Source: an uncultured Armatimonadetes bacterium (GTDB lineage Bacteria; Armatimonadota; UBA5829). Taken from it: a stretch of DNA of 64,000 nucleotides. The position numbers were made by a program, and so were the translations under genes. The notes under the pieces were generated by a model. That model saw only the letters and a program-made list of their open reading frames with translations. It was not told the DNA's origin and did not search any database. Positions 3,115-62,881 of this stretch are shown in pieces. Location: the NCBI GenBank assembly GCA_963711155.1, contig CAVQDB010000005.1, forward strand, positions 1,923,298 through 1,987,297, in the 5' to 3' direction. Each line of letters opens with the position of its first letter. Positions within the stretch are counted from its first letter, which is position 1.

Positions 3115-3177
3115 CACGTCGTGCTGAACTTGATTCAGCATCCACGCCTGGGCCCTGAATCAAGTTCAGGGTGACGT
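3115..3177. repeat. REP-like double hairpin (CTGAAC..GTTCAG family), copy 1
   Basis: cacgtc-gTGCTGAActtgatTCAGCAtccacgcctgggcCCTGAAtcaagtTCAGGgt-gacgtg. Two hairpins are bracketed by inverted cacgtc/gacgtg. The architecture matches 27640..27701. Confidence 0.7.
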
Positions 3178-7923: not shown

Positions 7924-7974
7924 GATTGCCAATTGTCGATTGACAATTGGCAATTGGCCGTCGATTCGAGGCTG

Positions 7975-8511
7975 ATGATCAAGCTTACGACACCACTGGC
8001 TGATTCGGATACCGAGCCGCTGCGCGCGGGGGACAGCGTGCTGCTGTCGGGCGTCGTGTATACGGCGCGGGATGCCGCCCACGCACGGCTGGTGCGATTG
8101 CTGGAGGAAGGCGAACCGCTGCCGATTGACCTCGCGGGCCAGGTGATCTACTACGTCGGGCCGACCCCCGCGCCGCCCGGACATGTCATCGGCGCGGCAG
8201 GACCGACCACGGCCGGCAGGATGGACTCGTTCACGCCCGCACTGCTCGAAGCGGGACTCAAGGGCATGATCGGCAAGGGCCTGCGCTCGCAGGAAGTCAG
8301 AGACGCCATCGTCAAGCACAAGGCCGTCTACTTCGCCGCGACCGGCGGCGCCGCCGCGCTGCTCGCCAAGCGCATCGTCTCCTGCGAGGTCGTCGCCTAC
8401 GAAGACCTCGGCTGCGAGGCAATCCACCGCCTCGAAGTCCGCGACCTGCCGCTCGTAGTCATCAATGATTGCATGGGTGGGGATTTCTATCGGAGAGAGT
8501 TTGAAGGTTAG
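7975..8511 (+). CDS. class I Fe-S fumarate hydratase beta subunit
   Basis: GVVYTARDAAHARL...YYVGPTPAPPGHVIGAAGPTTAGRMD...AVYFAATGGAAAL is the typical hydro-lyase beta type. ATG at 7975 lies inside ORF 7933..8511. Confidence 0.8.
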   Translation: MIKLTTPLADSDTEPLRAGDSVLLSGVVYTARDAAHARLVRLLEEGEPLPIDLAGQVIYYVGPTPAPPGHVIGAAGPTTAGRMDSFTPALLEAGLKGMIGKGLRSQEVRDAIVKHKAVYFAATGGAAALLAKRIVSCEVVAYEDLGCEAIHRLEVRDLPLVVINDCMGGDFYRREFEG

Positions 8512-8614: not shown

Positions 8615-9499
8615 TTGGCAGACACGAAGAGACCGTTGGGGTTTGGTGGTGACTGGACGGCGGAGAAGTTGGGGCGAGTGCGCAAGTACCTGAGCGCATA
8701 CGCGACTGCACTGAAGAACCAGCCGTTTAGGCTTACCTATATCGACGCGTTCGCAGGAACCGGATATTGCGGCAGAGGTCCCGAGGTAGCTCTTGATGCT
8801 CAACCGATTCCGGAACTGGCAGACAGCGAAACGCAAGCATTCCTCAAGGGTTCCGCCAGGATTGCTCTTGAGGTCGATCCGCCATTCCACGAGTTCATCT
8901 TCATTGACCGCGACCCCGCGAACTGCGCCGAACTTGGCAGCTTGAGTGACGAGTACCCAACCCTCAAGGACCGCATATCAGTCGTGAAGGCTGATGCCAA
9001 CGCTTACCTACAGAACCTGGCCGCGCACGACTGGATAGCGCGGCGGGAGCGTGCCGTGCTATTCCTAGACCCTTATGCCATGCAGGTTGACTGGGCTACG
9101 ATCCAAGCGGTCGCAAGGACCCGCGCGATCGATATGTGGTATCTGTTTCCTCTTGCCGCCGTGAACCGGCTACTGCGCAGGGACGCCAAGATAGACGAGG
9201 CATGGAGAGATCGCCTGAATCGCATCTTCGGAACCAGCGATTGGGAGGCGGCGTTCTATCAGCGCAGGGAAATGCAGACGCTGTTCGAGCAAGTCGAGTC
9301 GGTGGAGAAAGTTGCCACATTCGGGCGCATCAAAGAGTTCCTGCTGGAACGCCTGAGAGACGAGTTCGCTGATGTGGCTCAGAACCCGCTCGTACTGGAG
9401 AACAGCCGCGCGCCGCTCTTTCTCCTCTGCTTCGCCGTTGGCAACGAGAGAGGCGCAGCGCTGGCAGTGAAGATCGCTCAGCACATCCTGCGGAGATAG
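8615..9499 (+). CDS. tcmP: three-Cys-motif partner protein TcmP-like (Rossmann methyltransferase-like motifs)
   Basis: The N-terminus [24 protein letters not shown] matches my recollection of the TcmP family. [10 protein letters not shown] resembles SAM motif I and FLDPY a DPPY-like motif. It sits directly upstream of a DUF5131 gene, the family's usual partner. Confidence 0.6.
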
Positions 9500-9503
9500 A
9501 GCA

Positions 9504-10223
9504 ATGGCAACCAACACCTTGATAGAATGGACCGAATCGACATGGAACCCTGTAACGGGCTGCACCAAGGTCAGCGCGGGCTGTGCAAACTGCTACGCCG
9601 AGCGCATGGCAATGCGCCTGCAGGCAATGGGGCAGGCGAACTACCGCAACGGGTTCGCTGTCACGATGCACGAGCACGCGCTTGACCTGCCGCTGCGGTG
9701 GCGGAAGCCTCAGATGATCTTTGTGAACTCCATGAGCGATCTGTTCCACGAGGACGTGCCGGTCGAGTTCATTCTGCGAGTGTTTGAAGTAATGAGGCAA
9801 GCACACTGGCATCGATTTCAGATTCTGACAAAGCGATCCGCCCGGCTCGCCGAACTCGATCCGATACTGCCCTGGGCAGCAAACATCTGGATGGGCGTCA
9901 CCGTCGAGAACCAGGACTGCATGGCCCGCATCGGCGAACTCAAGAAATGCGGCGCTGCGGTCAAGTTCCTTTCACTTGAGCCGCTCCTCGGGCCGCTGCC
10001 GGACCTGCCCCTCGACGGCATCGATTGGGTGATAGTGGGCGGCGAGTCCGGCGTGGGCGCGCGGCCGATCTTGTCTGAATGGGTGACGGATATCCGGGAC
10101 CAGTGCATCGAATCCGACACGCCGTTCTTCTTTAAGCAGTGGGGCGGGGTCAACAAGAAGGCCGCCGGGCGCAAGCTCGACGACCGCGAATGGGACGAGA
10201 TGCCGGACCTCGCCGCCGGCTGA
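9504..10223 (+). CDS. DUF5131 (phage Gp37/Gp68) family protein
   Basis: [30 protein letters not shown] is the hallmark N-terminus. WIWMGVTVE and WVIVGGESG motifs. 4-nt gap to tcmP. Confidence 0.75.
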
Positions 10224-10227
10224 GCAC

Positions 10228-11328
10228 ATGAACACGATAGAAGGCACTGCCAAACAGCCTGGAATCGCGATCGCGGTGGCGGCGGTGGTTGATGCGAGAA
10301 GAGGCATCAACGCGGTGTCTCCCGCCCTGCTGCAGGAGGGCATATCGGCGCTGATGCGGGCGGCCAAGCCTGCCGACTACCCCGAGGCGATAATCGCGTG
10401 CGACAGCCTCGCCGTTGGCACAATCACGAGAATTCCGGGGATCAGCACGGCCGGCATCGCGGCGGAATCCGACACGGACGTGCCGGGAATCGACATCGAA
10501 ACGCCGTGCGTGATCGGCCTGACGGACCTGCTGAGATCGATCTCCGAGGGCGACATTCTGATCGTGGACGGTTACAGAGGCGAGGTTCACATCGACCCCG
10601 ACCCTCAAACGGTAATGCACTACCAGCAGGCGCAGGAGCGCCGCAACATGCGCGAGAAGGTCTTCATCACCTCCGAGCACATTCCCGCGCGCACGCAGTC
10701 TGGGGAGACGGTGCTGGTCTACGCTCAGCTATCCAAAAAAGGTGACAGACACCTTTTAGATTCGTGCTCAGAAAAGGTGTCTGTCACCTTTTTGGAGACG
10801 GCGCTTGAGGCGGGCGCGGACGGGCTGCTGGTGGATGCGCGCGGAATGGCGGACGTGGGCGGCGTTTCGGGTGAGATCCTGCGCGAGGCGGCCGGGAAGC
10901 CGGTGGTGTTGGTGGTGGATATGCACGTTATGGACGTGCTGCGCGCGGCGATGGCGTACTGCGCGCCGGGACAGGTGACGCTCGTCGGCGATGACTCTGA
11001 GCATCTGGCATCGCAGGTCGAGTCGGCGATGGACATTATCGTGCTCGAAGCACTGCAGCTGGACATCGAAGCGCCCGATGTCAAAGTCGGCGGCATCGCG
11101 CACGCGGGCATGTGCGATCCCAACGACCCGTCGCTGATCGCGATCGACGCGGCCGACTGCGGCATTGAGGACTTGCCCCAAATGCGTGAGGAAAGAATAG
11201 TCATAATCGGCGGCCGGCTCAAGGCAATCGAGCCGCTGGTGAAGGCCGGCGTCAGGCGGATCGCGGTCGAGCCCGAACTCGTAGGCGACGCCAAGTACGC
11301 GATACGTTCGATAGCACCCGAGGGCTGA
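10228..11328 (+). CDS. PEP-utilising enzyme (PtsI)-like protein lacking an obvious phospho-His motif
   Basis: Swivel-domain-like CVIGLTDLLRSISEGDILIVDGYRGEVHIDPDP. No GGxTSH motif seen. 4-nt gap to the DUF5131 gene. Carries the 63-nt palindrome at 10733..10795. Confidence 0.45.
   Translation: MNTIEGTAKQPGIAIAVAAVVDARRGINAVSPALLQEGISALMRAAKPADYPEAIIACDSLAVGTITRIPGISTAGIAAESDTDVPGIDIETPCVIGLTDLLRSISEGDILIVDGYRGEVHIDPDPQTVMHYQQAQERRNMREKVFITSEHIPARTQSGETVLVYAQLSKKGDRHLLDSCSEKVSVTFLETALEAGADGLLVDARGMADVGGVSGEILREAAGKPVVLVVDMHVMDVLRAAMAYCAPGQVTLVGDDSEHLASQVESAMDIIVLEALQLDIEAPDVKVGGIAHAGMCDPNDPSLIAIDAADCGIEDLPQMREERIVIIGGRLKAIEPLVKAGVRRIAVEPELVGDAKYAIRSIAPEG
10733..10795. repeat. 63-nt AT-rich palindrome inserted in-frame in the PtsI-like CDS
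   Basis: CCAAAAAAGGTGACAGACACCTTTT, 14-nt loop, AAAAGGTGTCTGTCACCTTTTTGG. Exactly 21 codons (SKKGDRHLLDSCSEKVSVTFL). Confidence 0.8.
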
Positions 11329-12409: not shown

Positions 12410-12492
12410 TTACGAGTTACGAAATACGGAAATACGAATCCGGGAGACGGTTGCAGCAACCTTGTTTCGTATTTCGTAATTCGTAATTCGTC
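12409..12492. terminator. TACGAAW heptamer-word hairpin between convergent stop codons
   Basis: gttacgagttacgaaatacggaaatacgaa, 26-nt loop, tttcgtatttcgtaattcgtaattcgt. It fills the gap between the stops at 12407-09 (+) and 12491-93 (-) exactly. Confidence 0.6.
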
Positions 12493-13634
12493 ATTGCTCT
12501 TCCGCCCACGCGTGCGCCGCCCGCCGCTCCTCCCACGGCGGCGGTTCGGGGATGCCGAAGGTCTCGCGCTTGCGCTTGAGGTAGTAGAGGTAGTTCTCGT
12601 AGGTTACGTCCGGCGGGACGCGGTGGTCCACGTGCGGGACGCAGCCGCCCTGCTCCACCAGCGGCCTTATCCGCTCGATCTCTCTGTCGATCGCGTCCTT
12701 TCCGGCGATGAGCTGGGTCTTGTCCACGCCACCGGCAAGCAGCACCCTCCGGCCGAACTGCTCCCGCATCCAGTAGGGGTCCGTGCCGCCGCGAATCTCC
12801 AGCGGGAACATGATGTTGACACCTCCGTCCAGCCAGCAATCGACCACGCAGTTGATGTTGCCGTCGCAATCGACTATCGCGAACTCGCAGCCGTTCGCGC
12901 GAAAGAGGTCGGTAAGCCTCTTGTAGTGCGGGGTCAGCCACCTGCGGAACATCGACGGCGATATGATCGGGCCGTGGTTGAACGCCATGTCCTCCCAGAA
13001 GGTCAGCAGATCGAACTGCACCTCGGTCGCGGCGCGCTTGAGAAGCTGGTATTGGAACTCGGTGAGATAGTCGATCATCTCCTCGACCCACGCCGGGGTC
13101 GTCCATGCACGCGATTGCTATGTTCTCGAACCCCATCCAGTCGCGAATCCAGCCGAACAGGCTGCCCGCGCCTATGCACAACGACGCGCTCCGGATTGCG
13201 TACCCGCTGCTTCCACGCCTCCCAGTCCGCGTCACTGGGATAGCGGCTGGGATCGGCGGGATCGAACTTCGTCTTGAACTCGTCCCAATCCTGGCGGGTC
13301 TCGATCGGGAACTTGAGGTAGAGCGGGATCGAGGAGGAGCCGTCCGTGTAGATCATCTTGGTGGCGCCGTCGTGGTCGATGATCTTGCGGTAGCGGTCGC
13401 CTTCCTCAAGGACCTTGTACTCGAATCCGGGAATGGCGCCGTTGCGCACCGGCGCGCCCATCTTGCCCTCAAACCGAAGAAGACGTCGGCCCTGCCGTTG
13501 TTGTTGACGTATTCCGGCAGGCCCTGTTTGTGCCACTCGGGGAAGGTCTCGTTCCAGTAGCCGAACTCCTCGTCCGGCACGTGGTCCACGGGCTGGAAGC
13601 GCATGCACGCCAGCCACCGTTCTCTGCTGTTCAT
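12491..13634 (-). CDS. uroporphyrinogen decarboxylase (URO-D) family protein, three frameshifts as assembled
   Basis: Pieces in four frames join into MNSRERWLACMRFQPVDHVPDEEFGYW... FEGKMGAP...KIIDHDG... SLFGWIRDWMGFENIAIACMDDPG... MIDYLTEF...GGCVPHVDHRVPPDV. Shifts at ~13470, ~13185 and ~13093. Confidence 0.65.
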
Positions 13635-22551: not shown

Positions 22552-24717
22552 ATGAGCAAACCTGCTGCCGACAAGCCCGCATCCGTTCCGCGTCCGCGTT
22601 CGCTGGACACTGAGGTCCAGTATGTGAAGGGCGTCGGGCCGCGGATCGCCGGCATGCTCGTCAAGCTCAACATTGGCACCGCCGGCGACCTGCTCCACCA
22701 CTTCCCCCGCCGCTACGAGGATCGCACCCACTTCGCCAGGGTCGCAAGCCTCCAGCACGGCGAGACCGCAACCGTTCGCGGCACCGTACTTGGCGCCGAC
22801 AACGTCTCCACCCGAGGGCGACTCGTTCTCACGAAGGTGGTCATCGATGACGGAACCGGCTCGCTTGTGCTAACGTGGTTCAACCAGAAGTTCCGCAAGG
22901 AGCAGTTCACCAAGCTGCGCGGACGCGAGATCGTCGCGTATGGGACCGTGCAGGCGGGTAGGTGGGGCGTGGAGATGCCCTCGCCTGAGGTCGAGATCTT
23001 CTCAGAACAGGGCGACCCGCTGTCAACGGGGCGCGTGGTACCGGTCTATCCGCTCACGGAAGGCCTTTTCCAGATCACGCTGCGCAAGGTCATCTACGGC
23101 ATGCTGGACGCGTATCTCCCGCTCATCGAGGAGACGCTGCCGGAGGACCTGCGCAACCGGCTCGACCTGATGGACGCGCAGGAGGCGATCCGCAACATAC
23201 ATTTCCCCGAGAGCGATGAGGCTCGTCTGGCGGCGCGGAAGCGATTGGTGTTCGAAGAGCTGTTCCTGCTGCAGCTTGCGCTCGCGATGAGAAAGCGCGG
23301 GATCGAGGCGCCCGGGCAGGGGATTGCGTTCAACATCCCGCCCGATCTCAAGGATCAACTGCGAAAGATACTGCCGTTCGAGCTCACGAACGCGCAGAAG
23401 AAGGTGATCAAGGAGATCGCCAACGATATGGCGCGGCCGGTGTGCATGAACCGGCTCCTGCAGGGCGACGTCGGCTCGGGCAAGACCGCGGTCGCGCTGG
23501 CGGCGATGCTGATCGCCGCGGCGAACGGCTACCAGTCCGCGCTGATGGCCCCGACCGAGATCCTCGCCGAGCAGCATTATATGGGCATTTCGCGATTGCT
23601 GGCACGCGCGGAAAATGGGGACAGTCCACCCGCTCCGCTTGGGACAGTCCCCATTTTCCCGAGCATTCGCGTCGATCTGCTTACCGGCAGCCTGCGCAGC
23701 GCGCACCGGCGGCAGGTCAACGAACGCATCGCGTCCGGCCAGACGCAGATCGTCATAGGCACGCACGCGCTGATTCAGGAGGGCGTGGAGTTCCACAAGC
23801 TGGGGCTGGTGATCGTTGACGAGCAGCACCGCTTCGGCGTGATGCAGCGGGCGGCGCTCATGGAAAAGGGCCTGATGCCCGACATGCTGGTCATGACCGC
23901 CACGCCGATCCCGCGCACGCTCACATTGACCGTCTACGGCGACCTCGACGTCTCGGTCATCGACGAGCTTCCGCCCGGCCGAAAGCCGATCAAGACCCAC
24001 TGGAAGCAGATCGGCGAGCGGCGAAAGGTCTACGCGGCGCTGCGGACGCTGATCGACCAGGGCAGGCAGGCCTACGTCGTCTGCCCGCTGATCGAGGAGA
24101 GCGACAAGCTGCAGGTGCAGGCCGCAACCGAGCTTGCCGAATTCCTGCAGACCGAGGTCTTCCCCGACATCAAGATCGGCCTGCTGCACGGCGGCATGAA
24201 GTCGGATGAGAAGGACGCCGTGATGACCGCGTTCAGAAGCGGCGAGGTGAATATCCTCGTCTCGACCACGGTGATCGAGGTGGGCGTTGACGTAGCGAAC
24301 GCCACAGTGATGGTGATCGAGGACGCCGACAGATTCGGGCTCGCTCAATTGCATCAACTCAGAGGAAGAGTCGGGCGCGGTGACGAACAGTCATATTGCG
24401 TGATGATCTGCGAGGGCAACAGCCAGGACTCGATCAAGCGCATGACGACGATGGCGCAGACCAACGACGGGTTCGTCATCGCCGAGAAGGATCTCGAACT
24501 GCGTGGCCCCGGCGAGTTCTACGGGACCAAGCAGAGCGGAATGCCCGAGCTGACGCTGGCGGACATCTTACACGACATACCGATACTCGAACTCGCCCGC
24601 AAAGAGGCGTTCGCGATAATCGACAAGGACCCGAATCTTTCGGCGGAGGCGTTCGGCAGGCTCCGCCGCGATCTGATCAAGAAGTACGAGGCGTTTGAGC
24701 TGGTGACGGTGAGCTGA
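22552..24717 (+). CDS. recG: ATP-dependent DNA helicase RecG
   Basis: Wedge domain, LLQGDVGSGKTAVA, VIVDEQHRFGV, MTATPIPRTL and QLHQLRGRVGRG motifs. 721 aa. Confidence 0.9.
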   Translation: MSKPAADKPASVPRPRSLDTEVQYVKGVGPRIAGMLVKLNIGTAGDLLHHFPRRYEDRTHFARVASLQHGETATVRGTVLGADNVSTRGRLVLTKVVIDDGTGSLVLTWFNQKFRKEQFTKLRGREIVAYGTVQAGRWGVEMPSPEVEIFSEQGDPLSTGRVVPVYPLTEGLFQITLRKVIYGMLDAYLPLIEETLPEDLRNRLDLMDAQEAIRNIHFPESDEARLAARKRLVFEELFLLQLALAMRKRGIEAPGQGIAFNIPPDLKDQLRKILPFELTNAQKKVIKEIANDMARPVCMNRLLQGDVGSGKTAVALAAMLIAAANGYQSALMAPTEILAEQHYMGISRLLARAENGDSPPAPLGTVPIFPSIRVDLLTGSLRSAHRRQVNERIASGQTQIVIGTHALIQEGVEFHKLGLVIVDEQHRFGVMQRAALMEKGLMPDMLVMTATPIPRTLTLTVYGDLDVSVIDELPPGRKPIKTHWKQIGERRKVYAALRTLIDQGRQAYVVCPLIEESDKLQVQAATELAEFLQTEVFPDIKIGLLHGGMKSDEKDAVMTAFRSGEVNILVSTTVIEVGVDVANATVMVIEDADRFGLAQLHQLRGRVGRGDEQSYCVMICEGNSQDSIKRMTTMAQTNDGFVIAEKDLELRGPGEFYGTKQSGMPELTLADILHDIPILELARKEAFAIIDKDPNLSAEAFGRLRRDLIKKYEAFELVTVS
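23611..23658. repeat. 48-nt palindrome inserted in-frame in recG
   Basis: GAAAATGGGGACAGTCC, 14-nt loop, GGACAGTCCCCATTTTC (one mismatch). Exactly 16 codons within ARAENGDSPPAPLGTVPIFPS. Confidence 0.8.
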
Positions 24718-27597: not shown

Positions 27598-27718
27598 TTG
27601 CGAATTACGAATTACTAGTTGCGAGTTACGAATCGCCTAGTGTCATGCTGAACTTGATTCAGCATCCAGGCCTGGATCCCGAAACCAGTTCAGGATGACA
27701 CGATTCGTAACTCGTAAC
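27598..27718. repeat. composite element: TACGAAT-word inverted arms enclosing a REP-like double hairpin
   Basis: Left arm ttgcgaattacgaattactagttgcgagttacgaatcg. Cargo 27640..27701 is gtgtcaTGCTGAActtgatTCAGCA...CCCGAAaccagTTCAGGatgacac. Right arm cgattcgtaactcgtaac. Confidence 0.7.
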
Positions 27719-27740: not shown

Positions 27741-28739
27741 ATGCCGAATGTGATGGAGACGATCTACGCCAAGGCCAGGGCCGCCACAAAGCGCGTTGTG
27801 CTGCCGGAGGCTGATGATGTGAGGACCGTCGCCGCGGCCCAGAAGATAGTTGAGCGCGGTCTGGCCCAGGTGGTACTGGTCAGCGAGGAGGACAAGATCG
27901 CGGCTGCGTGCAAGGCGTCCGGCGCGGACGTGTCCGGCTGCAGAATCGTCGATCCGGTCAAGTCGCCACTGCGAGACGAATACGCTAAGGCGTTCTACGA
28001 ACTTCGAAAGGCAAAGGGCATCACAGAGCAGCAGGCGCACGAGATCGTCGCCGACCCGCTCTATTTCGGCTGCATGATGGTCTACTCCGACGAGGCCGAC
28101 GGGCAGGTCTCCGGCGCGACGCACGCGACCTCCGACACGGTCCGCCCCGCGCTGCAGATCCTCAAGACCGCGCCGGGGTGCAAGATCGCGTCGAGCTTCT
28201 TCGTAATGATCGTCCCGGACTGCGAATACGGCGAGAACGGCGTCTTCATCTACGCGGACTCCGGCCTCGTCATCAACCCCAACGCCGACGAACTCGCCGA
28301 GATCGCCATCCAGAGCGCGAAGACGATGCGCACACTGCTCGGCTTCGAGCCGCGAGTGGCGATGCTGTGCTTCTCGACCAAGGGCAGCGCGTCCGATCCG
28401 ATCGCGGACAAGGTGATCGAGGCCACCAGGATCGCCAAGGAGCGCGCGCCGGAGCTGCTCATCGACGGCGAGCTTCAGGGCGACGCGGCCCTGGTCGATT
28501 GGATCGGCAAGAAGAAGGCGCCCGGAAGTCCTGTCGCGGGCAGAGCGAACGTTCTGATTTTCCCTGACCTCAATGCAGGTAATATATGCTACAAGCTGAC
28601 GGAGAGGCTGGCGAAGGCCGAGGCCTACGGCCCGGTCCTTCAGGGCATCCGCAGGCCCGTCAATGACCTCTCCAGAGGCTGCGATGTGGAAGACATAGTC
28701 AACGTCGCCGCGATTACCGCGGTGCAAGCGATAGAATGA
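27741..28739 (+). CDS. pta: phosphate acetyltransferase
   Basis: VVLPEADDVRTV...SGATHATSDTVRPALQI...IFPDLNAGNICYKL. ATG 27741 inside ORF 27720..28739. Confidence 0.9.
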   Translation: MPNVMETIYAKARAATKRVVLPEADDVRTVAAAQKIVERGLAQVVLVSEEDKIAAACKASGADVSGCRIVDPVKSPLRDEYAKAFYELRKAKGITEQQAHEIVADPLYFGCMMVYSDEADGQVSGATHATSDTVRPALQILKTAPGCKIASSFFVMIVPDCEYGENGVFIYADSGLVINPNADELAEIAIQSAKTMRTLLGFEPRVAMLCFSTKGSASDPIADKVIEATRIAKERAPELLIDGELQGDAALVDWIGKKKAPGSPVAGRANVLIFPDLNAGNICYKLTERLAKAEAYGPVLQGIRRPVNDLSRGCDVEDIVNVAAITAVQAIE

Positions 28740-28817
28740 GTTACGAAATACGAACTACGAAATACGAATTGGGAAGCGTGCGTCCTCATTCGTATTTCGT
28801 ATTTCGTAACTCGTAAC
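28740..28817. terminator. TACGAAW heptamer-word hairpin after pta
   Basis: gttacgaaatacgaactacgaaatacgaat, 18-nt loop, attcgtatttcgtatttcgtaactcgtaac. It begins 1 nt after the pta stop. Confidence 0.65.
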
Positions 28818-33123: not shown

Positions 33124-34020
33124 ATGGGGAGTAGGAAGGTTGCGTTCGTATTCCCCGGCCAGGGGTCGCAGTGCGTCGGGATGGGCAAGGAGCTTGCGGA
33201 GAACTATGCCGTGGCGGCGGACGTGTTCAAGCGCGCCGACGCTGCACTGGGCTACTCGATCTCGGAGCTGTGCTTCAACGGCCCTGAAGACGAGCTGAAG
33301 CAGACCATCAACGCGCAGCCCGCGCTCTTTGTGACCAGCGCGGCGGCGTATGAAGTCGCGCTTGAGAATGGCCTCCTGCCGGCGTTTGCCGCGGGTCACA
33401 GCATCGGCGAATACGCGGCGCTCTATGCGGCGGGCACATACACGCTCGAAGAGGGATTGAGGCTGGTTCGGACCCGCGCGCGGTTGATGCAGGACGCTGC
33501 CGAAGCCAATCCGGGCACGATGGCCGCGATTCTCGGCCTGTCGCCCGAACAGGCCACCGAAGCGGTCGAGAAATCGGCCGACGCCGGGATCGTCACCGCG
33601 GCCAACTTCAACAGCCCGATCCAGACGGTGATATCGGGCGAGGCGGCGGCGGTCGCGAAGGCGTCCGAGATCGCTTCCGAGATGGGCGCGAAGCGCGTCG
33701 TGCCGCTCAACGTCAGTGGCGCGTTTCACTCGCCTCTTATGCAGTCGGCGGCGGAAGCGCTCTATGAAGCGCTGAAGGGTGCTGAGATGTGCGATCCCAT
33801 GACGCCCGTGGTCGCGAACTATACCGCCGACTTCGAAACTACCGCCGCCGAAGTGCGCGCCAATCTAGCCAAACAGCTCACCGGCAGCGTGCGGTGGGTC
33901 GAGTCCGTACGCAGGATGCTTGACGCGGGGGCCGAAGCTTTCATAGAATTGGGGTCGGGTAACGTGCTGGCGGGGCTGATCAAGCGGATCGCGCCGGAAG
34001 CAGAGATCATTGAGTATTGA
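33124..34020 (+). CDS. fabD: malonyl CoA-ACP transacylase
   Basis: FVFPGQGSQ, AGHSIGEYAAL and VSGAFHSPLM motifs. Confidence 0.9.
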   Translation: MGSRKVAFVFPGQGSQCVGMGKELAENYAVAADVFKRADAALGYSISELCFNGPEDELKQTINAQPALFVTSAAAYEVALENGLLPAFAAGHSIGEYAALYAAGTYTLEEGLRLVRTRARLMQDAAEANPGTMAAILGLSPEQATEAVEKSADAGIVTAANFNSPIQTVISGEAAAVAKASEIASEMGAKRVVPLNVSGAFHSPLMQSAAEALYEALKGAEMCDPMTPVVANYTADFETTAAEVRANLAKQLTGSVRWVESVRRMLDAGAEAFIELGSGNVLAGLIKRIAPEAEIIEY

Positions 34021-34095
34021 TTATTGAGTATTGAGTATTTCCACCGAGTCCACGACTGCGTGGGCAATACTCAATACTCAATACGAAATACTCAG
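34009..34095. repeat. GAGTATT heptamer-word hairpin overlapping the fabD stop
   Basis: attgagtattgattattgagtattgagtatt, 25-nt loop, caatactcaatactcaatacgaaatactcag. Confidence 0.65.
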
Positions 34096-35314: not shown

Positions 35315-36553
35315 ATGCAGGAAAGAAGAGTTGTAGTAACCGGCCTTGGGGCGATCACTCCCCTGGGCAACACCGTTGATGAGTTCTGGGCGTCGGTAAA
35401 GGCGGGCAAGAACGGTATCGGACCGATAACGCATTTCGACGCCTCCCAGCACGCCACGCAGATAGCGGCGGAGGTTAAGGGCTTCGATCCGACCGAGTTC
35501 GTCGATGCAAAGTCCGCGCGGCAGATGGACACGTTCGTCCAATACGCGACCGCGGCGGCGCTCACCGCGATGAAGGACAGCGGACTCGAAGTCACCGAGG
35601 AAAACGGCCCTCGCGTCGGCGTGCTGATCGGATCGGGCATCGGCGGGGTCGAGACCTGGGAAGTGCAGCATATCAATTTGCTCAACAACGGCCCGAGGCG
35701 CGTCAGCCCGTTCTTTGTCCCGATGCTGATCGCGAATATGGCCAGCGGGATGGTGGCGATCCTTACCGGCGCCAAGGGACCGAACATGGCCGTGGTGACC
35801 GCGTGCGCGACCGCCAGCCACTCCACCGGCGAGGCCTGGCACATGATCCGGCGCGGCGATGCCGACGCGATGATCGTCGGCGGCGCCGAGGCAGCGATTC
35901 GACCGCTGAGTTGCGCCGGTTTCTGCACCATGAAGGCGATGACCACCCGCAACGACGATCCCGAGCACGCCAGCCGGCCGTTCGACAAAGATAGAGATGG
36001 GTTCGTAATGGGCGAGGGCGCGGGCGTTCTCATCATCGAAGAACTCGAGCACGCCAAGGCCCGCGGCGCGCACATCTACGCCGAGATCGTCGGCTACGGC
36101 TGCTCGGCGGACGCGTATCACATGGTCGTTATCGACCATCACGGCGCGGCGCGAAGCATGCAGAACTCGCTCGATAGCGCCGGCATTACCGCCGACAAGA
36201 TCGACTACATCAACGCGCACGGCACATCGACGCCGGTCGGCGATCCCGAGGAGTGCAAGGCGATCAAGCTGACGTTTGGCGACGCCGCGAAGAACGTGAT
36301 GGTCAGCTCGACGAAGTCCATGCACGGCCACCTGCTCGGCGCGGCGGGTGCGGTCGAGAGCATCGTGTGCATCAAGGCGATCAACGAGGGCATTGTCCCG
36401 CCGACCCGCAACCTGGTCGAGCCCGATACCGAGTGCACTCTCGATCTCATTCCGAACGAGGCGCGCGAAGCGAAGGTAGAATATGCGATGAACAACTCCT
36501 TCGGCTTCGGCGGCCAGAACGCGACGCTGATTTTCAGAAGGTTTGATGGTTAG
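35315..36553 (+). CDS. fabF: 3-oxoacyl-ACP synthase II
   Basis: [34 protein letters not shown] and NSFGFGGQN motifs. Confidence 0.9.
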
Positions 36554-36628
36554 TGGAAAGCTGAGAGTGGAAAGTGGAAAGCGGCCGGGCCGCTCGCAGC
36601 TTTCCACTTTCCGCTTTCCACTTTCCAC
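36553..36628. repeat. GGAAAGT heptamer-word hairpin after fabF
   Basis: gtggaaagctgagagtggaaagtggaaagcgg, loop, agctttccactttccgctttccactttccac. It starts at the fabF stop. Confidence 0.65.
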
Positions 36629-47964: not shown

Positions 47965-49423
47965 GTGAGAAAAAGCCTGACAATTGTCTTGATAATAGTG
48001 ATCGTGGTCGGCGGGCTTTTCGCCGCGATGATAGCGCGCGCTCCGAAGAAGGCCCAGCCAACGACCGCGCAGCGGTGGGCAACGGAGGGCATACCCGTGG
48101 AGACGGCGGTGCTCTCGCGCGGCGACATGGAGCAGCACCGTCGAGGTCACTGGCGACATCAACGCCCTCGACAAGGTCACTCTATCGGCCAAGGTCCCCG
48201 GGCGCGTGGTGAGTGTCACGGCTCGCGAGGGCGATAGGGTCACGTGCGGCGAAGCGATGATCGTGCTGGATCAGGCGGATATGAGAAGCCATCTCCTCTC
48301 AGCACAGGGCGGTCTCCAGACGGCTGTGGCGCGGCTCTCGCAGGCAAAGACCAACCAGGCCGTCACGAAGATACAGACCGACTCCGCAATCGAGCAGGCT
48401 CAGGCACAACTGGACGCCGCAAGGGCCAGGCTCGCGGTCGCAAAGAAGCCGAGTCGCTCTCAGGAGCGAATGGTGGCCGAGAACGCCGTCGCCGAGGCCA
48501 AGGCCAACCTCGACCGCGCCGCCGCCGACTACAAGCGCAACAAGAACCTGCTTGCCCAGGGCGCCATCTCGCAGTCGGCGTTCGACGTTGCCGACACGGC
48601 GTACAAGGTCACGCAGGCGCAGTATAAGTCCGCAACCGATCGGCTCTCGATGATAAAGGAAGGCGGACGAACCGAAGAGATTGCGCAAGCGGAGGCGCAG
48701 GTTCAAGTCGCGCAGGAAGCCCTGCGCACGGCCAGGGCCAACGCGTCGCAGAACATGCTCCGCAAGGAGGACGTCAGGCAGGCCCAGGCGGCGCTGGAAC
48801 AGGCGAAGGCCGCCGTCGCGATCGCCCAGCAGCAGCTATCATACTGCTACGTCAACGCGCCTCTATCCGGCGTGCTATCGGCAAGGCAGACCGAGCCCGG
48901 CCAGGTGGTCTCGGCGGGCCAGCCGCTGGGTGAGGTCGTGAACCTCGGCTCGATCTACTTCAAGGGCGACGTGTCCGAGAAGGAGATCGTCAACGTCCAC
49001 GCCGGCCAGCATGTGCGCGTGAAGGTGGACGCGATTCGTGGACGGACGTTTGCCGGACACGTTGACAAGGTCTTCCCTGCCGGCTCGACGACGAGCAGGA
49101 ACTTCTCCGTGCGCGTCAGAATCGACGACCCCGGCCACAAGATCAGGCCGGGCATGTTCGCGCGAGGCCGGATCGTGACCGGAATCGAGCACGACGTGAT
49201 CCTGATTCCCAAGGACGCCATCGACGAACGCAAAGGCACGGATTCGGTGTTCACCATCGGCGCGAAAAGCAAAGTCGCACGGCATATCGTCACCGTTCTG
49301 CGGGAAAACCCGGACTACGTGCAGATTGACCTGCCCACGGACCTCAAACCAGGCGATGTCGTGGTCACGACAGGCCGTCAGAGCCTGCAGCCAGGCTCCA
49401 AGGTCCTGGTCGAGAAGAGGTAG
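47965..49423 (+). CDS. RND efflux membrane fusion protein (HlyD/AcrA family), one frameshift as assembled
   Basis: TM anchor in the ORF 47965 frame. TVEVTGDINALDKVTLSAKVPGRVVSV and the rest in the ORF 48206 frame. Extra base at ~48136. Confidence 0.8.
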
Positions 49424-49449
49424 TTACGAATTACGAATTACGAATTGCG
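49424..49449. repeat. single TACGAAT-word arm after the MFP stop
   Basis: ttacgaattacgaattacgaattgcg. No complementary arm follows. Confidence 0.6.
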
Positions 49450-49455
49450 GGCAGC

Positions 49456-49601
49456 GTGTCATGCTGAACTTGTTTCAGCATCCAGGCGCCAACCTGTCAT
49501 GCTGAACTTGTTTCAGCATCCAGGCGCTAACGGGTCATGCTGAACTTGTTTCAGCATCCAGGCGGGCTGTCGTGGATCCTGAATCAAGTTCAGGATGACA
49601 T
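49456..49601. repeat. REP-like cluster: three tandem left-type hairpins plus one inverted right-type hairpin
   Basis: (g/c/g)tgtcaTGCTGAActtgttTCAGCAtccaggcg three times at a 38-nt period, then ggatCCTGAAtcaagtTCAGGatgacat. Confidence 0.8.
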
Positions 49602-49606
49602 GCCAT

Positions 49607-49713
49607 TGACTGACGACCGATGACTGACAACTGATGACTGACGACCGATGACTGATGACTGACAACTGATGACTGACGACTGATGACTGATGACTGACAA
49701 CTGACAACCGACG
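49607..49713. repeat. TGACTGA 7/14-nt tandem array directly upstream of the RND gene
   Basis: TGACTGACRACYGA units interspersed with TGACTGA half units. TGA occurs in all three + frames. It ends 17 nt before ATG 49731. Confidence 0.8.
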
Positions 49714-49730
49714 GCTTCTGGAGCGTTTCT

Positions 49731-58010: not shown

Positions 58011-58679
58011 ATGGAAGAGAATGTAGTCACGCTGGACACCGTTCGGCGGGACCCTAAGGTCAAGACATTCATAGAGGCGGCAAACGAGCAGATGGACGCG
58101 CTCGGTTACACTGAGCACGGCTTCCGCCACGCCAGCATCGTCGCCGAGACCGCCCACAGCATCATCGCGAGCATGGGCCAGGGCGCGCGCCAGGCCGAGC
58201 TTGCCTCGATATCGGGCTACCTGCATGACATCGGCAACGCCGTCAACCGCCTCGGTCACCCGGACACGTCGGCGATTATGGCGTTCACGCTGCTGAACGA
58301 GATCGGTATGCCCGCAAACGAGATCGCGCAGGTCATCGCCGCGATAGGCAATCATGAGGAGGAGCTCGGCGCGCCGGTCAGTGCGATTTCCGCCGCGCTG
58401 ATCATCGCCGACAAGTCCGACGTCCACCACTCCCGCGTCCAGAACCAGAACCCGCTCACATTCGACATCCACGACCGCGTCAACTTCTCCGTGCAGAAGT
58501 CCGCGCTGCGGGTGGATACCGACAACAAATCCATCAACCTGGAGCTGACCACCGACGAGCAGTCGGCGTCGGTGATGGAGTATTTCGAGATATTCCTGTC
58601 CCGAATGCTGATGTGCCGCCGCGCCGCCGACTTCTTCGGCTACAAGTTCAAGCTGATCATCAACGATGTGGAGATGTAG
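58011..58679 (+). CDS. HD-domain phosphohydrolase
   Basis: GFRHASIVAE...GYLHDIGNAVNRLGH...GNHEE...IIADKSDV. Confidence 0.75.
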   Translation: MEENVVTLDTVRRDPKVKTFIEAANEQMDALGYTEHGFRHASIVAETAHSIIASMGQGARQAELASISGYLHDIGNAVNRLGHPDTSAIMAFTLLNEIGMPANEIAQVIAAIGNHEEELGAPVSAISAALIIADKSDVHHSRVQNQNPLTFDIHDRVNFSVQKSALRVDTDNKSINLELTTDEQSASVMEYFEIFLSRMLMCRRAADFFGYKFKLIINDVEM

Positions 58680-58686
58680 TCGTTAT

Positions 58687-58774
58687 CCTGACAACGCAGT
58701 GGGGTCGTCATGACAACGCAGTCGTGTCATCATGACAACGCAGTCGTGTCGTAATGACAACGCAGTCGTGTCAT
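58687..58774. repeat. four tandem copies of a 22-nt mini-hairpin unit
   Basis: cATGACAacgcagtcgTGTCAt four times (58687, 58709, 58731, 58753; the first copy is diverged). Each unit carries an ATGACA/TGTCAT inverted repeat. Confidence 0.8.
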
Positions 58775-58795
58775 CCTGAACTCGTTTCAGGATCC
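58770..58795. repeat. REP-like hairpin (CTGAAC..GTTCAG family variant)
   Basis: gtcATCCTGAActcgtTTCAGGATcc, abutting the 22-nt array. Confidence 0.6.
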
Positions 58796-58983
58796 ATCTC
58801 AGGTTGATGGCCAATCGTTGGAAGACCCGCCAGCGCTGAGTAGCCGCGGCCTGGGCGACGTATGAAGGAAGGCCGCCGGAGCGCGCTGTTTCGGGATTTC
58901 GCACATGCACGGCGCCACTCTCACCACGAGCCTGCTGCGAAGCGCCTGGGTTGGGGACGCGTGCAGCCCAAATCCCGAAACCG

Positions 58984-60619: not shown

Positions 60620-60846
60620 AAACTCCCCCCCGCTGCGCCGCCGGGCACATCACTACTCCCCCCCGAGGCGGGGGGCTGGGGGGGGTCGGAACATCCGGCC
60701 CCGTGCACAGCAAACTCCCCGCCGCGGGCTGGGGGGGGTCGGAACATCCGGCCCTGTGCACAGCAAACTCCCCCCCGCTGCGGGGGGGCTGGGGGGGTCG
60801 GCTAGGATTGTTCGGGCGGGATCTGCAATCCCGCCCGAACAACCAG
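60620..60846. repeat. G/C-homopolymer-rich tandem repeat plus 14-bp hairpin inserted in trmFO
   Basis: Units begin with cagcaaactcccc at 60616, 60708 and 60761 (92, 53 and a truncated ~45 nt). Core is ...ggggggtcggaacatccggccYgtgca. The hairpin is ttgttcgggcggga / tcccgcccgaacaa at 60808-60842. Confidence 0.75.
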
Positions 60847-62573: not shown

Positions 62574-62861
62574 ATGCCCGCAGGAATAGACGAGACAATC
62601 CATCAGAAGACCCGGCTGGCGATAATGGCCCACCTGGCCGCGCGCGGCGAAAGCGACTTCCTGACCATCAGGAGCACGCTCGGCCTCACCGACGGCAACA
62701 TCGCAGTGCACACGAACATCCTGGCGGAGAAAGGCTACATCGAGACCGAGCGGTCGATTGTCGGCAAGAAGACGCGCACGGTATATCGCATCACCAACGA
62801 GGGCAGGAAGGCGTTCGAGCAATACGTGACCGATCTCGAGCACGTGCTGCGTGGATGCTGA
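62574..62861 (+). CDS. winged-helix (HTH_34/ArsR-like) transcriptional regulator
   Basis: IHQKTRLAIMAHLAARGESDFLTIRSTLGLTDGNIAVHTNILAEKGYIETERSIVGKKTRTVYRITNEGRKAF. Confidence 0.65.
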   Translation: MPAGIDETIHQKTRLAIMAHLAARGESDFLTIRSTLGLTDGNIAVHTNILAEKGYIETERSIVGKKTRTVYRITNEGRKAFEQYVTDLEHVLRGC

Positions 62862-62881
62862 ACTCGTTTCAGCATCCACGC
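62849..62881. terminator. REP-family perfect hairpin overlapping the regulator stop codon
   Basis: gCGTGGATGCTGAA, ctcgt, TTCAGCATCCACGc (14-bp stem). Confidence 0.6.

Follow-up and report, generated by a model that had tools for sequence, protein, structure and literature searches.

Within a 64,000-nt stretch of the genome of an uncultured Armatimonadetes bacterium (positions 1,923,298 to 1,987,297 of contig CAVQDB010000005.1, assembly GCA_963711155.1; hereafter, the window), a gene for a hypothetical protein with a predicted Enzyme I-like fold carries a 59-nt palindrome that is read in frame with the gene. We find that this segment is derived rather than ancestral, and that the palindrome belongs to a family of inverted hairpin doublets that is dispersed in many copies and frequently resides in frame within genes. 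We consider it likely that the palindrome represents a copy of a REPIN-type mobile element, small and non-autonomous, in which a conserved spacer separates two inverted hairpin units of about 21–25 nt that are similar to repetitive extragenic palindromic (REP) sequences. The parts of the element and its host gene, all on the plus strand, are as follows (window coordinates).

10228..11328, plus strand: host open reading frame (ORF), 366 aa, hypothetical protein with an architecture similar to Enzyme I and pyruvate phosphate dikinase (swivel domain and TIM-barrel-like domain)
10735..10793, plus strand: whole element, 59 nt, an inverted doublet of a small hairpin unit, from an A6 run to a T5 run, with the A- and T-runs taken as boundaries
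10735..10757, plus strand: left unit, A6 GGTG ACAGA CACC T4, a hairpin of its own with an 8-bp stem and a 5-nt loop
10758..10771, plus strand: spacer (loop of the doublet), AGATTCGTGCTCAG, conserved among family members in either orientation
10772..10793, plus strand: right unit, A4 GGTG TCTGT CACC T5, the reverse complement of the left unit
10732..10794, plus strand: 21 codons (S169-L189), SKKGDRHLLDSCSEKVSVTFL, unlike the homologues, which have 6 codons there (net gain of 15)

The orientation of the element was set by its loop, which reads ATTCGTGCTCAG on the plus strand. A repeat finder detected perfect arms at 10736-10757 and 10772-10793 (22 nt, 100% complementary, 14 nt between them). In a separate scan, no other palindrome of the roughly 30 in the window had perfect arms as long, and a 1-nt bulge (A6 versus T5) lets the pairing extend through CC/GG to TCC/GGA. 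By our own estimate, about 9e-7 perfect 22-nt inverted repeats with a loop of up to 80 nt are expected by chance in 64 kb. Taken alone, the left and right units fold at -8.3 and -9.6 kcal/mol, respectively, each with an 8-bp stem and a 5-nt loop, and the whole element folds at -41.1 kcal/mol as RNA (z = -7.4) and at -25.4 as DNA (z = -8.2), with none of 200 shuffles folding as well. The 21-mer of the arm has no other match in the window, and 100 shuffles likewise gave none. The palindrome is real and non-random. An earlier note on this DNA, made from the letters alone, had described the inverted repeat with its 14-nt loop, a small hairpin in each arm and a low local GC content in a GC-rich coding sequence, and all three descriptions hold: the GC content is 0.41 in the element region versus 0.64 in the rest of the host gene, and at third codon positions (GC3) the values are 0.48 and 0.81.

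Codons 10732-10794 give SKKGDRHLLDSCSEKVSVTFL in the frame of the host ORF. Of the three sense frames of the window copy, just the one in phase with the host is free of stops (two of all six frames are open). A TGA closes the left arm in one frame; the right arm contains no stop in any of the three. A search of Rfam yielded only sub-threshold matches to generic microRNA-like hairpins, and the element unit is absent from that database. A consensus scan for intrinsic terminators (GC-rich stem, 3-8 nt loop, then a T-run) flagged nothing at the element; in the single units, the T-run belongs to the stem, unlike in an intrinsic terminator. A 30-aa window fragment, used to look for proteins with the element peptide, gave no match at E<=0.001 in an exhaustive HMMER search.

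The family of the host ORF is found only in Armatimonadota-type sequences and is annotated as hypothetical; the window protein keeps 19 of the 19 family-invariant residues. In Pfam, the ORF matches the PEP-utilizers mobile domain at 21.7 bits, below the cut-off of 23.1. The AlphaFold model of the protein (mean predicted local distance difference test score, pLDDT, of 90.8) is structurally closest to Enzyme I of the phosphotransferase system (PTS) and to pyruvate phosphate dikinase, followed by TIM barrels, with E values from 1e-10 to 1e-5. The name 'PtsI-like' that the earlier note had used thus appears acceptable for the modelled fold but no further, the match at the sequence level being sub-threshold. 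In the model, the 21 insert residues are located between a strand (161-168) and a helix (186-194) and have a pLDDT of about 53, a low value that would mark the segment as a surface loop.

The insert is derived and not ancestral coding sequence because it is absent both in 34 of 34 aligned homologues (38-76% identity), in which the length of the site is constant, and in two syntenic orthologous loci, L001 and L002. These two loci share the gene order of the window (fumarase, host gene, 2-hydroxyacid dehydrogenase, URO-D, SpoIIE), have the short form of the host gene and are about 78-81% identical to the window in their flanking nucleotides. The event was a replacement: in the protein alignment the gap is 15 aa, with six residues in the homologues (e.g. 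S-GASRL) against 21 in the window, and in the codon-level alignment TCC and GAG are separated by 60 nt in the window, as against 15 nt plus a GAT or CAA codon in the relatives. If the element is taken from A-run to T-run, its 59 nt stand in place of 14 nt found in L001 and L002, a net change of +45 nt (15 aa). The ancestral 18 nt bear no resemblance to either arm of the window copy. The proposal of the earlier note that the segment was inserted is therefore borne out, as are its count of 21 in-frame codons and their translation, and where it had considered that homologues might share the segment without the palindrome, all 34 lack the segment itself. The clean 21-aa indel that it had expected from a comparison with homologues gives way to a replacement that lengthens the protein by 15 aa overall, and its reading of ...VLVYAQL and ETALEAGADG... 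as continuous without the segment fails, since all 34 homologues have six residues between the two. As a separate matter, the idea that the loop is a remnant of the ancestral 18 nt, caught between two independent unit insertions, was rejected, given that the loop is conserved at unrelated loci.

Copies of the whole doublet are dispersed across many loci. A metagenome scan yielded 24 inverted doublets with the exact arms of the window copy, 22 of them distinct and up to five on one contig; the carriers are Armatimonadota, as judged by MurE homology. The spacer is conserved at 14-16 nt, with the loop ATTCGTGCTCAG present in locus L039, its reverse complement in L030, L031 and L040, and close variants in L032, L033, L037 and L041. 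In blastn comparisons, the window copy is 92-97% identical to the copies in L031, L039, L030 and L033, and the rest of those loci is unlike the window. L033b and L041 are two sites on one contig with the same derived loop variant, pointing to a recent copy. A covariance model built from 15 copies (R1) recovers one true member in the window, at 86 bits; apart from a palindrome in recG, which is considered below, the other matches in the window are generic hairpins. What is repeated in these sequences is the doublet, units plus spacer.

Residence of these doublets in frame within genes is frequent. Long high-GC3 frames read through many copies. Among the 22 distinct copies, at least seven are in frame in genes verified with Pfam, in addition to the window copy; only this Pfam-verified minimum was counted, given that stop-to-stop frames and GC3 alone could not sort the rest as genic or intergenic in these GC-rich contigs. 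The seven copies, all identified through Pfam domains, are the following.

L031: MurE-type ligase, element within the N-terminal domain
L048: DnaE, element within the polymerase domain
L043b: DUF58 protein, element within the domain
L044: FGGY kinase, domains around or spanning the element
L037: MurC-MurB fusion, element in the linker
L043a: BatA/VWA protein, domains around or spanning the element
L045: ABC ATPase, domains around or spanning the element

The common encoded peptide is KGDRHLF-x4-KVSVTFL, ending instead in ...KRCLSPFL where the spacer is one base shorter. Further copies are found at N-termini or between genes, and both copies in L033 lie 3-7 nt past stop codons. One of these follows a PlsY-like ORF (L033:7417-7767) that covers positions 2-101 of the 164-position profile and stops 3 nt before the element; the element may have truncated this ORF.

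In close relatives, the site of the murE copy is found in four different occupied states, and most homologues are empty. L031 has an intact doublet (GGTGACAGACACC), whereas L049 has a decayed hybrid doublet that keeps its pairing through compensatory changes. In L051 (10210-10250), exactly the same site is taken by a palindrome with the arms GTTTCGGGATTT...AAATCCCGAAAC and a 12-nt loop, a clean in-frame addition of 39 nt, and in P0202, seen at the protein level, a doublet combines GGGGACAG-type arms with the 'SCS' loop peptide of the family described here. The sequences suggest that the site is either a permissive hot spot or subject to element-for-element replacement, and the combination in P0202 hints that arm families exchange or share loops. 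A palindrome with GTTTCGGGATTT and AAATCCCGAAAC arms and a 70-nt spacer is also present in the window, at 58888-58981.

The window contains one more palindrome within a coding sequence that belongs in this context:

23610..23659, plus strand: palindrome GGAAAATGGGGAC...GTCCCCATTTTCC in recG (22552..24717), in frame within the DEAD helicase domain

Its flanks are A- and T-runs, its core is GACAG and GGGACAGTCC is directly duplicated in it; its loop, CCCGCTCCGCTT, is similar to CCGCTCCGCTCA, the loop of the MurE insert in L051. It is the next-best match of R1 in the window, at 23.7 bits (E 0.0015). The earlier note had placed it in one class with the palindrome studied here; a class of palindromes within coding sequences does exist, as a multi-copy family with at least seven further in-frame copies, but at 23.7 versus 86 bits the recG palindrome does not belong to that family. 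Given its different sequence, it may at best represent a related family rather than a second copy.

The single hairpin unit reaches far beyond Armatimonadota. A 19-mer of the arm, AAAGGTGACAGACACCTTT, was found in 24 stretches of species-representative genomes, compared to about 4 expected for a random 19-mer (our own estimate), and the matches come from Planctomycetota, Gammaproteobacteria, Armatimonadota, Hydrogenedentota, Omnitrophota and other groups, at GC contents from 0.36 to 0.70. They are usually bordered by A- and T-runs, often a few bases past the end of an open frame, and five of the loci (L004, L006, L009, L021 and L022) are inverted doublets like the window element. The unit is a dispersed repeat in those genomes because its generalised form, AAGGTG-NCNGN-CACCTT, has 38 matches in the 24 loci, with up to five per 8 kb. 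These sequences fit the description of the REP superfamilies as 20-40 bp stem-loops (stem of 5-13 bp, loop of 2-20 nt) that are found singly and as head-head or tail-tail dimers. No viral contig carries the unit, and hence there is no evidence for phage carriage. In two metagenome-assembled genomes, from Hydrogenedentota (L016) and Gammaproteobacteria (L023), the GGTG..CACC unit occurs in intergenic clusters together with other small hairpins common to both, for example, GTCCCAGCG...GCTGGGAC-CCATT and GGATTCCGGC...GCCGGAATGAC.

Among the known systems, the closest architectural counterparts are the REPINs, which are REP doublets that form a hairpin and have two alternative folds (PMC3116915; PMC3337134). 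As in REPINs, short palindromic units are inverted around a conserved spacer, can form one long or two small hairpins and are dispersed in many copies, and it is the doublet, not the singlet, that is copied, with singlets and decayed partners also occurring. The element differs from REPINs in its size (51-60 nt versus next-neighbour distances of 71-110 bp), in being bounded by A- and T-runs without the GTAG tag, and in that no REP-associated tyrosine transposase (RAYT) was found in the about 400 kb of DNA searched. Furthermore, about a third of the copies are genic, in contrast to REPINs, which have been described as extragenic, and the host phylum is Armatimonadota, with the unit itself occurring across phyla.

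In their behaviour, the elements are closer to two kinds of repeats that enter genes. Intragenic REP dimers encode 20-30 aa, in hosts that include DnaE and DNA repair or helicase genes (Di Nocera et al. 2013, PMC3733652). The CGTC class of these GTAG/CGTC dimers has stems of 8-9 bp and loops of 4-5 nt, which is the geometry of the unit described here; homodimers form a larger hairpin, some are in frame in genes, and most of the others lie just downstream of ORFs (PMC3733652). Armatimonadota are not among the phyla reported in that study, and neither the sequence of the element nor its peptides appear in the supplementary lists (PMC3733652). Rickettsia palindromic elements (RPEs) are palindromic repeats located in frame in unrelated housekeeping genes, with a conserved peptide for each family that is thought to be compatible with the fold of the host protein (summarised in PMC10969869, PMC3733652). 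The element is likewise a repeated palindrome with a conserved peptide, in frame in functional genes, but RPEs of the RPE-1 type span about 100-150 bp and the short RPE-4/6 are CGTC-tagged, whereas the element is 59 nt long and untagged. Moreover, RPEs are limited to Rickettsia and relatives, in contrast to the element, which occurs in a free-living phylum and replaces target bases. Miniature inverted-repeat transposable elements are also small and non-autonomous, with terminal inverted repeats and occasional in-frame fusions; the element differs in having no target-site duplication, in falling below their usual 70-300 bp and in being entirely a hairpin rather than terminal repeats around a core.

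Literature searches for the exact arm sequences returned unrelated eukaryotic primers only, and those for palindromic elements in Armatimonadetes returned nothing. The family has the architecture of REPINs and the behaviour of RPEs and intragenic REP dimers. It is apparently undescribed in the literature, of a known REPIN-like or RPE-like kind, and in-frame events of this type are uncommon but already known. What sets it apart from the described families is the lack of a tag, the very compact size, a unit that is shared across phyla and the replacement of target bases.

Under the reading that we favour, that of a REPIN-type mobile element, the doublet, for which one long hairpin and two small ones are alternative folds, would be copied whole, and in the source lineage a copy would have entered the Enzyme I-like gene, removing 14 nt of target and adding 59 nt. 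By analogy with the RAYT/IS200-type transposases that act on REPINs, mobility would depend on an enzyme that recognises hairpins in single strands. The insert would have persisted because the net change of +45 nt left the reading frame intact, because the sole stop-free sense frame of the copy matched the phase of the host and because, in the model, the surface loop between strand and helix tolerates the 15 extra residues. Selection would thus act as a filter that only copies that keep the frame, lack stops and sit in tolerant loops survive, and the element itself would be selfish or neutral, with no necessary benefit to the host.

Several observations weigh against this reading. A crude HUH/Y1 pattern applied to 1,726 open frames identified no transposase, RAYT or other, near the copies, and according to Pfam, the genes between clustered units are ordinary ones that include no transposase, in about 400 kb of DNA in all, with no complete carrier genome among it. 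The GTAG/CGTC tag, which RAYT cleaves in classical REPs, is within 8 nt of only 2-4 of the 83 unit ends, and none of the flank positions around these ends is conserved. At the 24 doublets, there is no target-site duplication (length of 0-2 nt, the chance level). Only a single copy is present in the 64-kb window. None of the three comparisons of filled and empty sites shows a clean insertion, which is unexpected for a simple cut-and-paste or peel-and-paste transposon: besides the host site in the window, MurE in L031 has about 63 nt instead of 36 nt, with the empty allele encoding V-S-V-P-Y exactly where the element encodes V-S-V-T-F, and at the MurC-MurB linker the 'empty' allele holds a right-arm-like half element. 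The pairing of the arms, by contrast, counts in favour of the reading, as it is maintained while the sequences diverge: arm positions are paired in 96.7% of cases and 13 of 22 pairs have changed on both sides, a level that none of 500 shuffles reached. However, both strands of each palindrome are counted in these figures, and an inverted duplication alone can give such a signal.

The persistence of an identical 19-mer over GC contents from 0.36 to 0.70 suggests a sequence-specific constraint, and one source of it could be that the units are functional host signals (two-way terminators, mRNA-stabilising hairpins or protein binding sites) kept similar by a shared recognition machinery, with the copies in coding sequences being either accidental or regulatory within the gene, serving for instance as RNase III sites or translation-dependent attenuators. 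Units follow stop codons at a distance of a few nucleotides, both in L033 and in other genomes, the succession of A-run, hairpin and T-run has the shape of a two-way terminator, and a perfect 22-25 bp stem in mRNA is a plausible RNase III substrate. Nevertheless, we regard this explanation as unlikely: the element is not flagged by a simple terminator scan, terminators share no loops or spacers between loci whereas the 14-16-nt spacer is conserved here, a terminator within murE or dnaE would be harmful, and copying is indicated both by the presence and absence of the element in orthologues and by the identical derived copies that two sites of one contig share. It is much less probable that the segment is an artefact of assembly or sequencing, such as a fold-back or chimeric read. 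Library artefacts can create palindromes, and a nearby URO-D homologue is broken over three frames, possibly through indel errors; against this, the same element is in frame in independent JGI, ENA and Logan assemblies, the reading frame is preserved with the sole open sense frame in use, and the loop does not come from local sequence. That the 21 residues are ancestral and were lost in other lineages is the least credible of the alternatives: only the intact frame speaks for it, and it is refuted by the homologue alignment (the segment is missing from all 34 homologues, of which the most distant is 38% identical, at constant site length) and by the same DNA in unrelated genes, to which the GC3 of 0.48 versus 0.81 can be added.

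The replacements raise the question of how much of the palindrome came from elsewhere. It might have been built largely in place, from half an element or a seed, with hairpin-templated repair or template switching (quasipalindrome 'perfection') making the second arm from host sequence, which would explain why host nucleotides were replaced and not pushed apart. All three comparisons of filled and empty sites, the match between V-S-V-P-Y and V-S-V-T-F in MurE and the half element in the 'empty' MurC-MurB allele fit this scheme, as does the proposal, made for REPINs, that an asymmetric intermediate regains its symmetry through pairing at the target, which would accommodate the replacement of target bases (PMC3337134 / PMC3116915). 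We consider such an origin rather improbable, given that neither arm in the window is like the ancestral 18 nt and that arms plus loop are 92-97% identical to copies elsewhere, so that at least an arm with the loop came from outside; in-place building refines the integration step and is not an alternative origin. A more speculative extension, which we think doubtful but worth stating, is that these elements may not be ordinary transposons but hairpin modules that pair with, and overwrite, arm-like host sequence. This would explain the replacement of bases, the half element at an 'empty' site and the V-S-V-P versus V-S-V-T match. The modules may also turn over at the same codon, given the four different palindromes at the MurE site of close relatives. 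With the identical 21-nt unit present in phyla from Armatimonadota to Planctomycetota and Gammaproteobacteria, this scheme would imply that many bacteria share an as yet unrecognised machinery for handling hairpins, by which essential proteins receive a peptide module in their surface loops time and again.

The surroundings of the host gene and the rest of the window show further features of interest. Between the gene for the fumarase beta subunit (7933..8511) and the host gene, positions 8615-10223 hold a 294-aa ORF without a Pfam hit and a gene for a DUF5131 protein (E 2e-99); both are missing from the otherwise syntenic L001 and L002 and thus represent a small lineage-specific gene insertion beside the element-bearing gene. 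On the minus strand at 12497-13634, tblastn places aa 180-379 of the URO-D homologue in frame -1, aa 55-153 in frame -2 and the start in frame -3, whereas the gene is intact (379 aa) in L001 and L002, so that the split gene in the window is either a pseudogene or the result of indel errors in the assembly. A cluster reminiscent of bacterial interspersed mosaic elements at 49420-49720 consists of (TTACGAA)x3, 2.8 copies of a 38-nt hairpin unit, TGTCATGCTGAACTTGTTTCAGCATCCAGGCGCCAACC, an inverted partner and (TGACTGA)x13. The hairpin of this cluster, CTGAACTTG.TTCAGCATCCA, recurs at 3124-3169, about 27640-27700 and 62849-62881 in the window and at L037:2695-2759, and constitutes a second dispersed hairpin family. 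AT-rich palindromes, apparently between ORFs, are located at 12417-12479, 28738-28812, 34009-34084 and 36552-36628, and their arms are tandem heptamers (TACGAAA, ATTGAGT, GTGGAAA), which is unusual for hairpins at gene ends. Tandem repeats are present at 58678-58779 and 60673-60778, with periods of 22/44 nt (4.1 and 2.4 copies) and 53 nt (2.0 copies, 96% match).

Inserts of this kind also matter for annotation: in conserved proteins they show as odd stretches of low GC and as 15-20-aa indels, and in intergenic DNA they lead to spurious small ORFs. In-frame palindromic repeats have been known chiefly from Rickettsia and a few REP-rich species, and the same habit is now seen in Armatimonadota, including in murE, dnaE and other core genes. 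The family thus offers a tractable case for asking how hairpin repeats enter coding sequence harmlessly, whether new protein loops arise in this way, and which enzyme moves tagless REP-like DNA.

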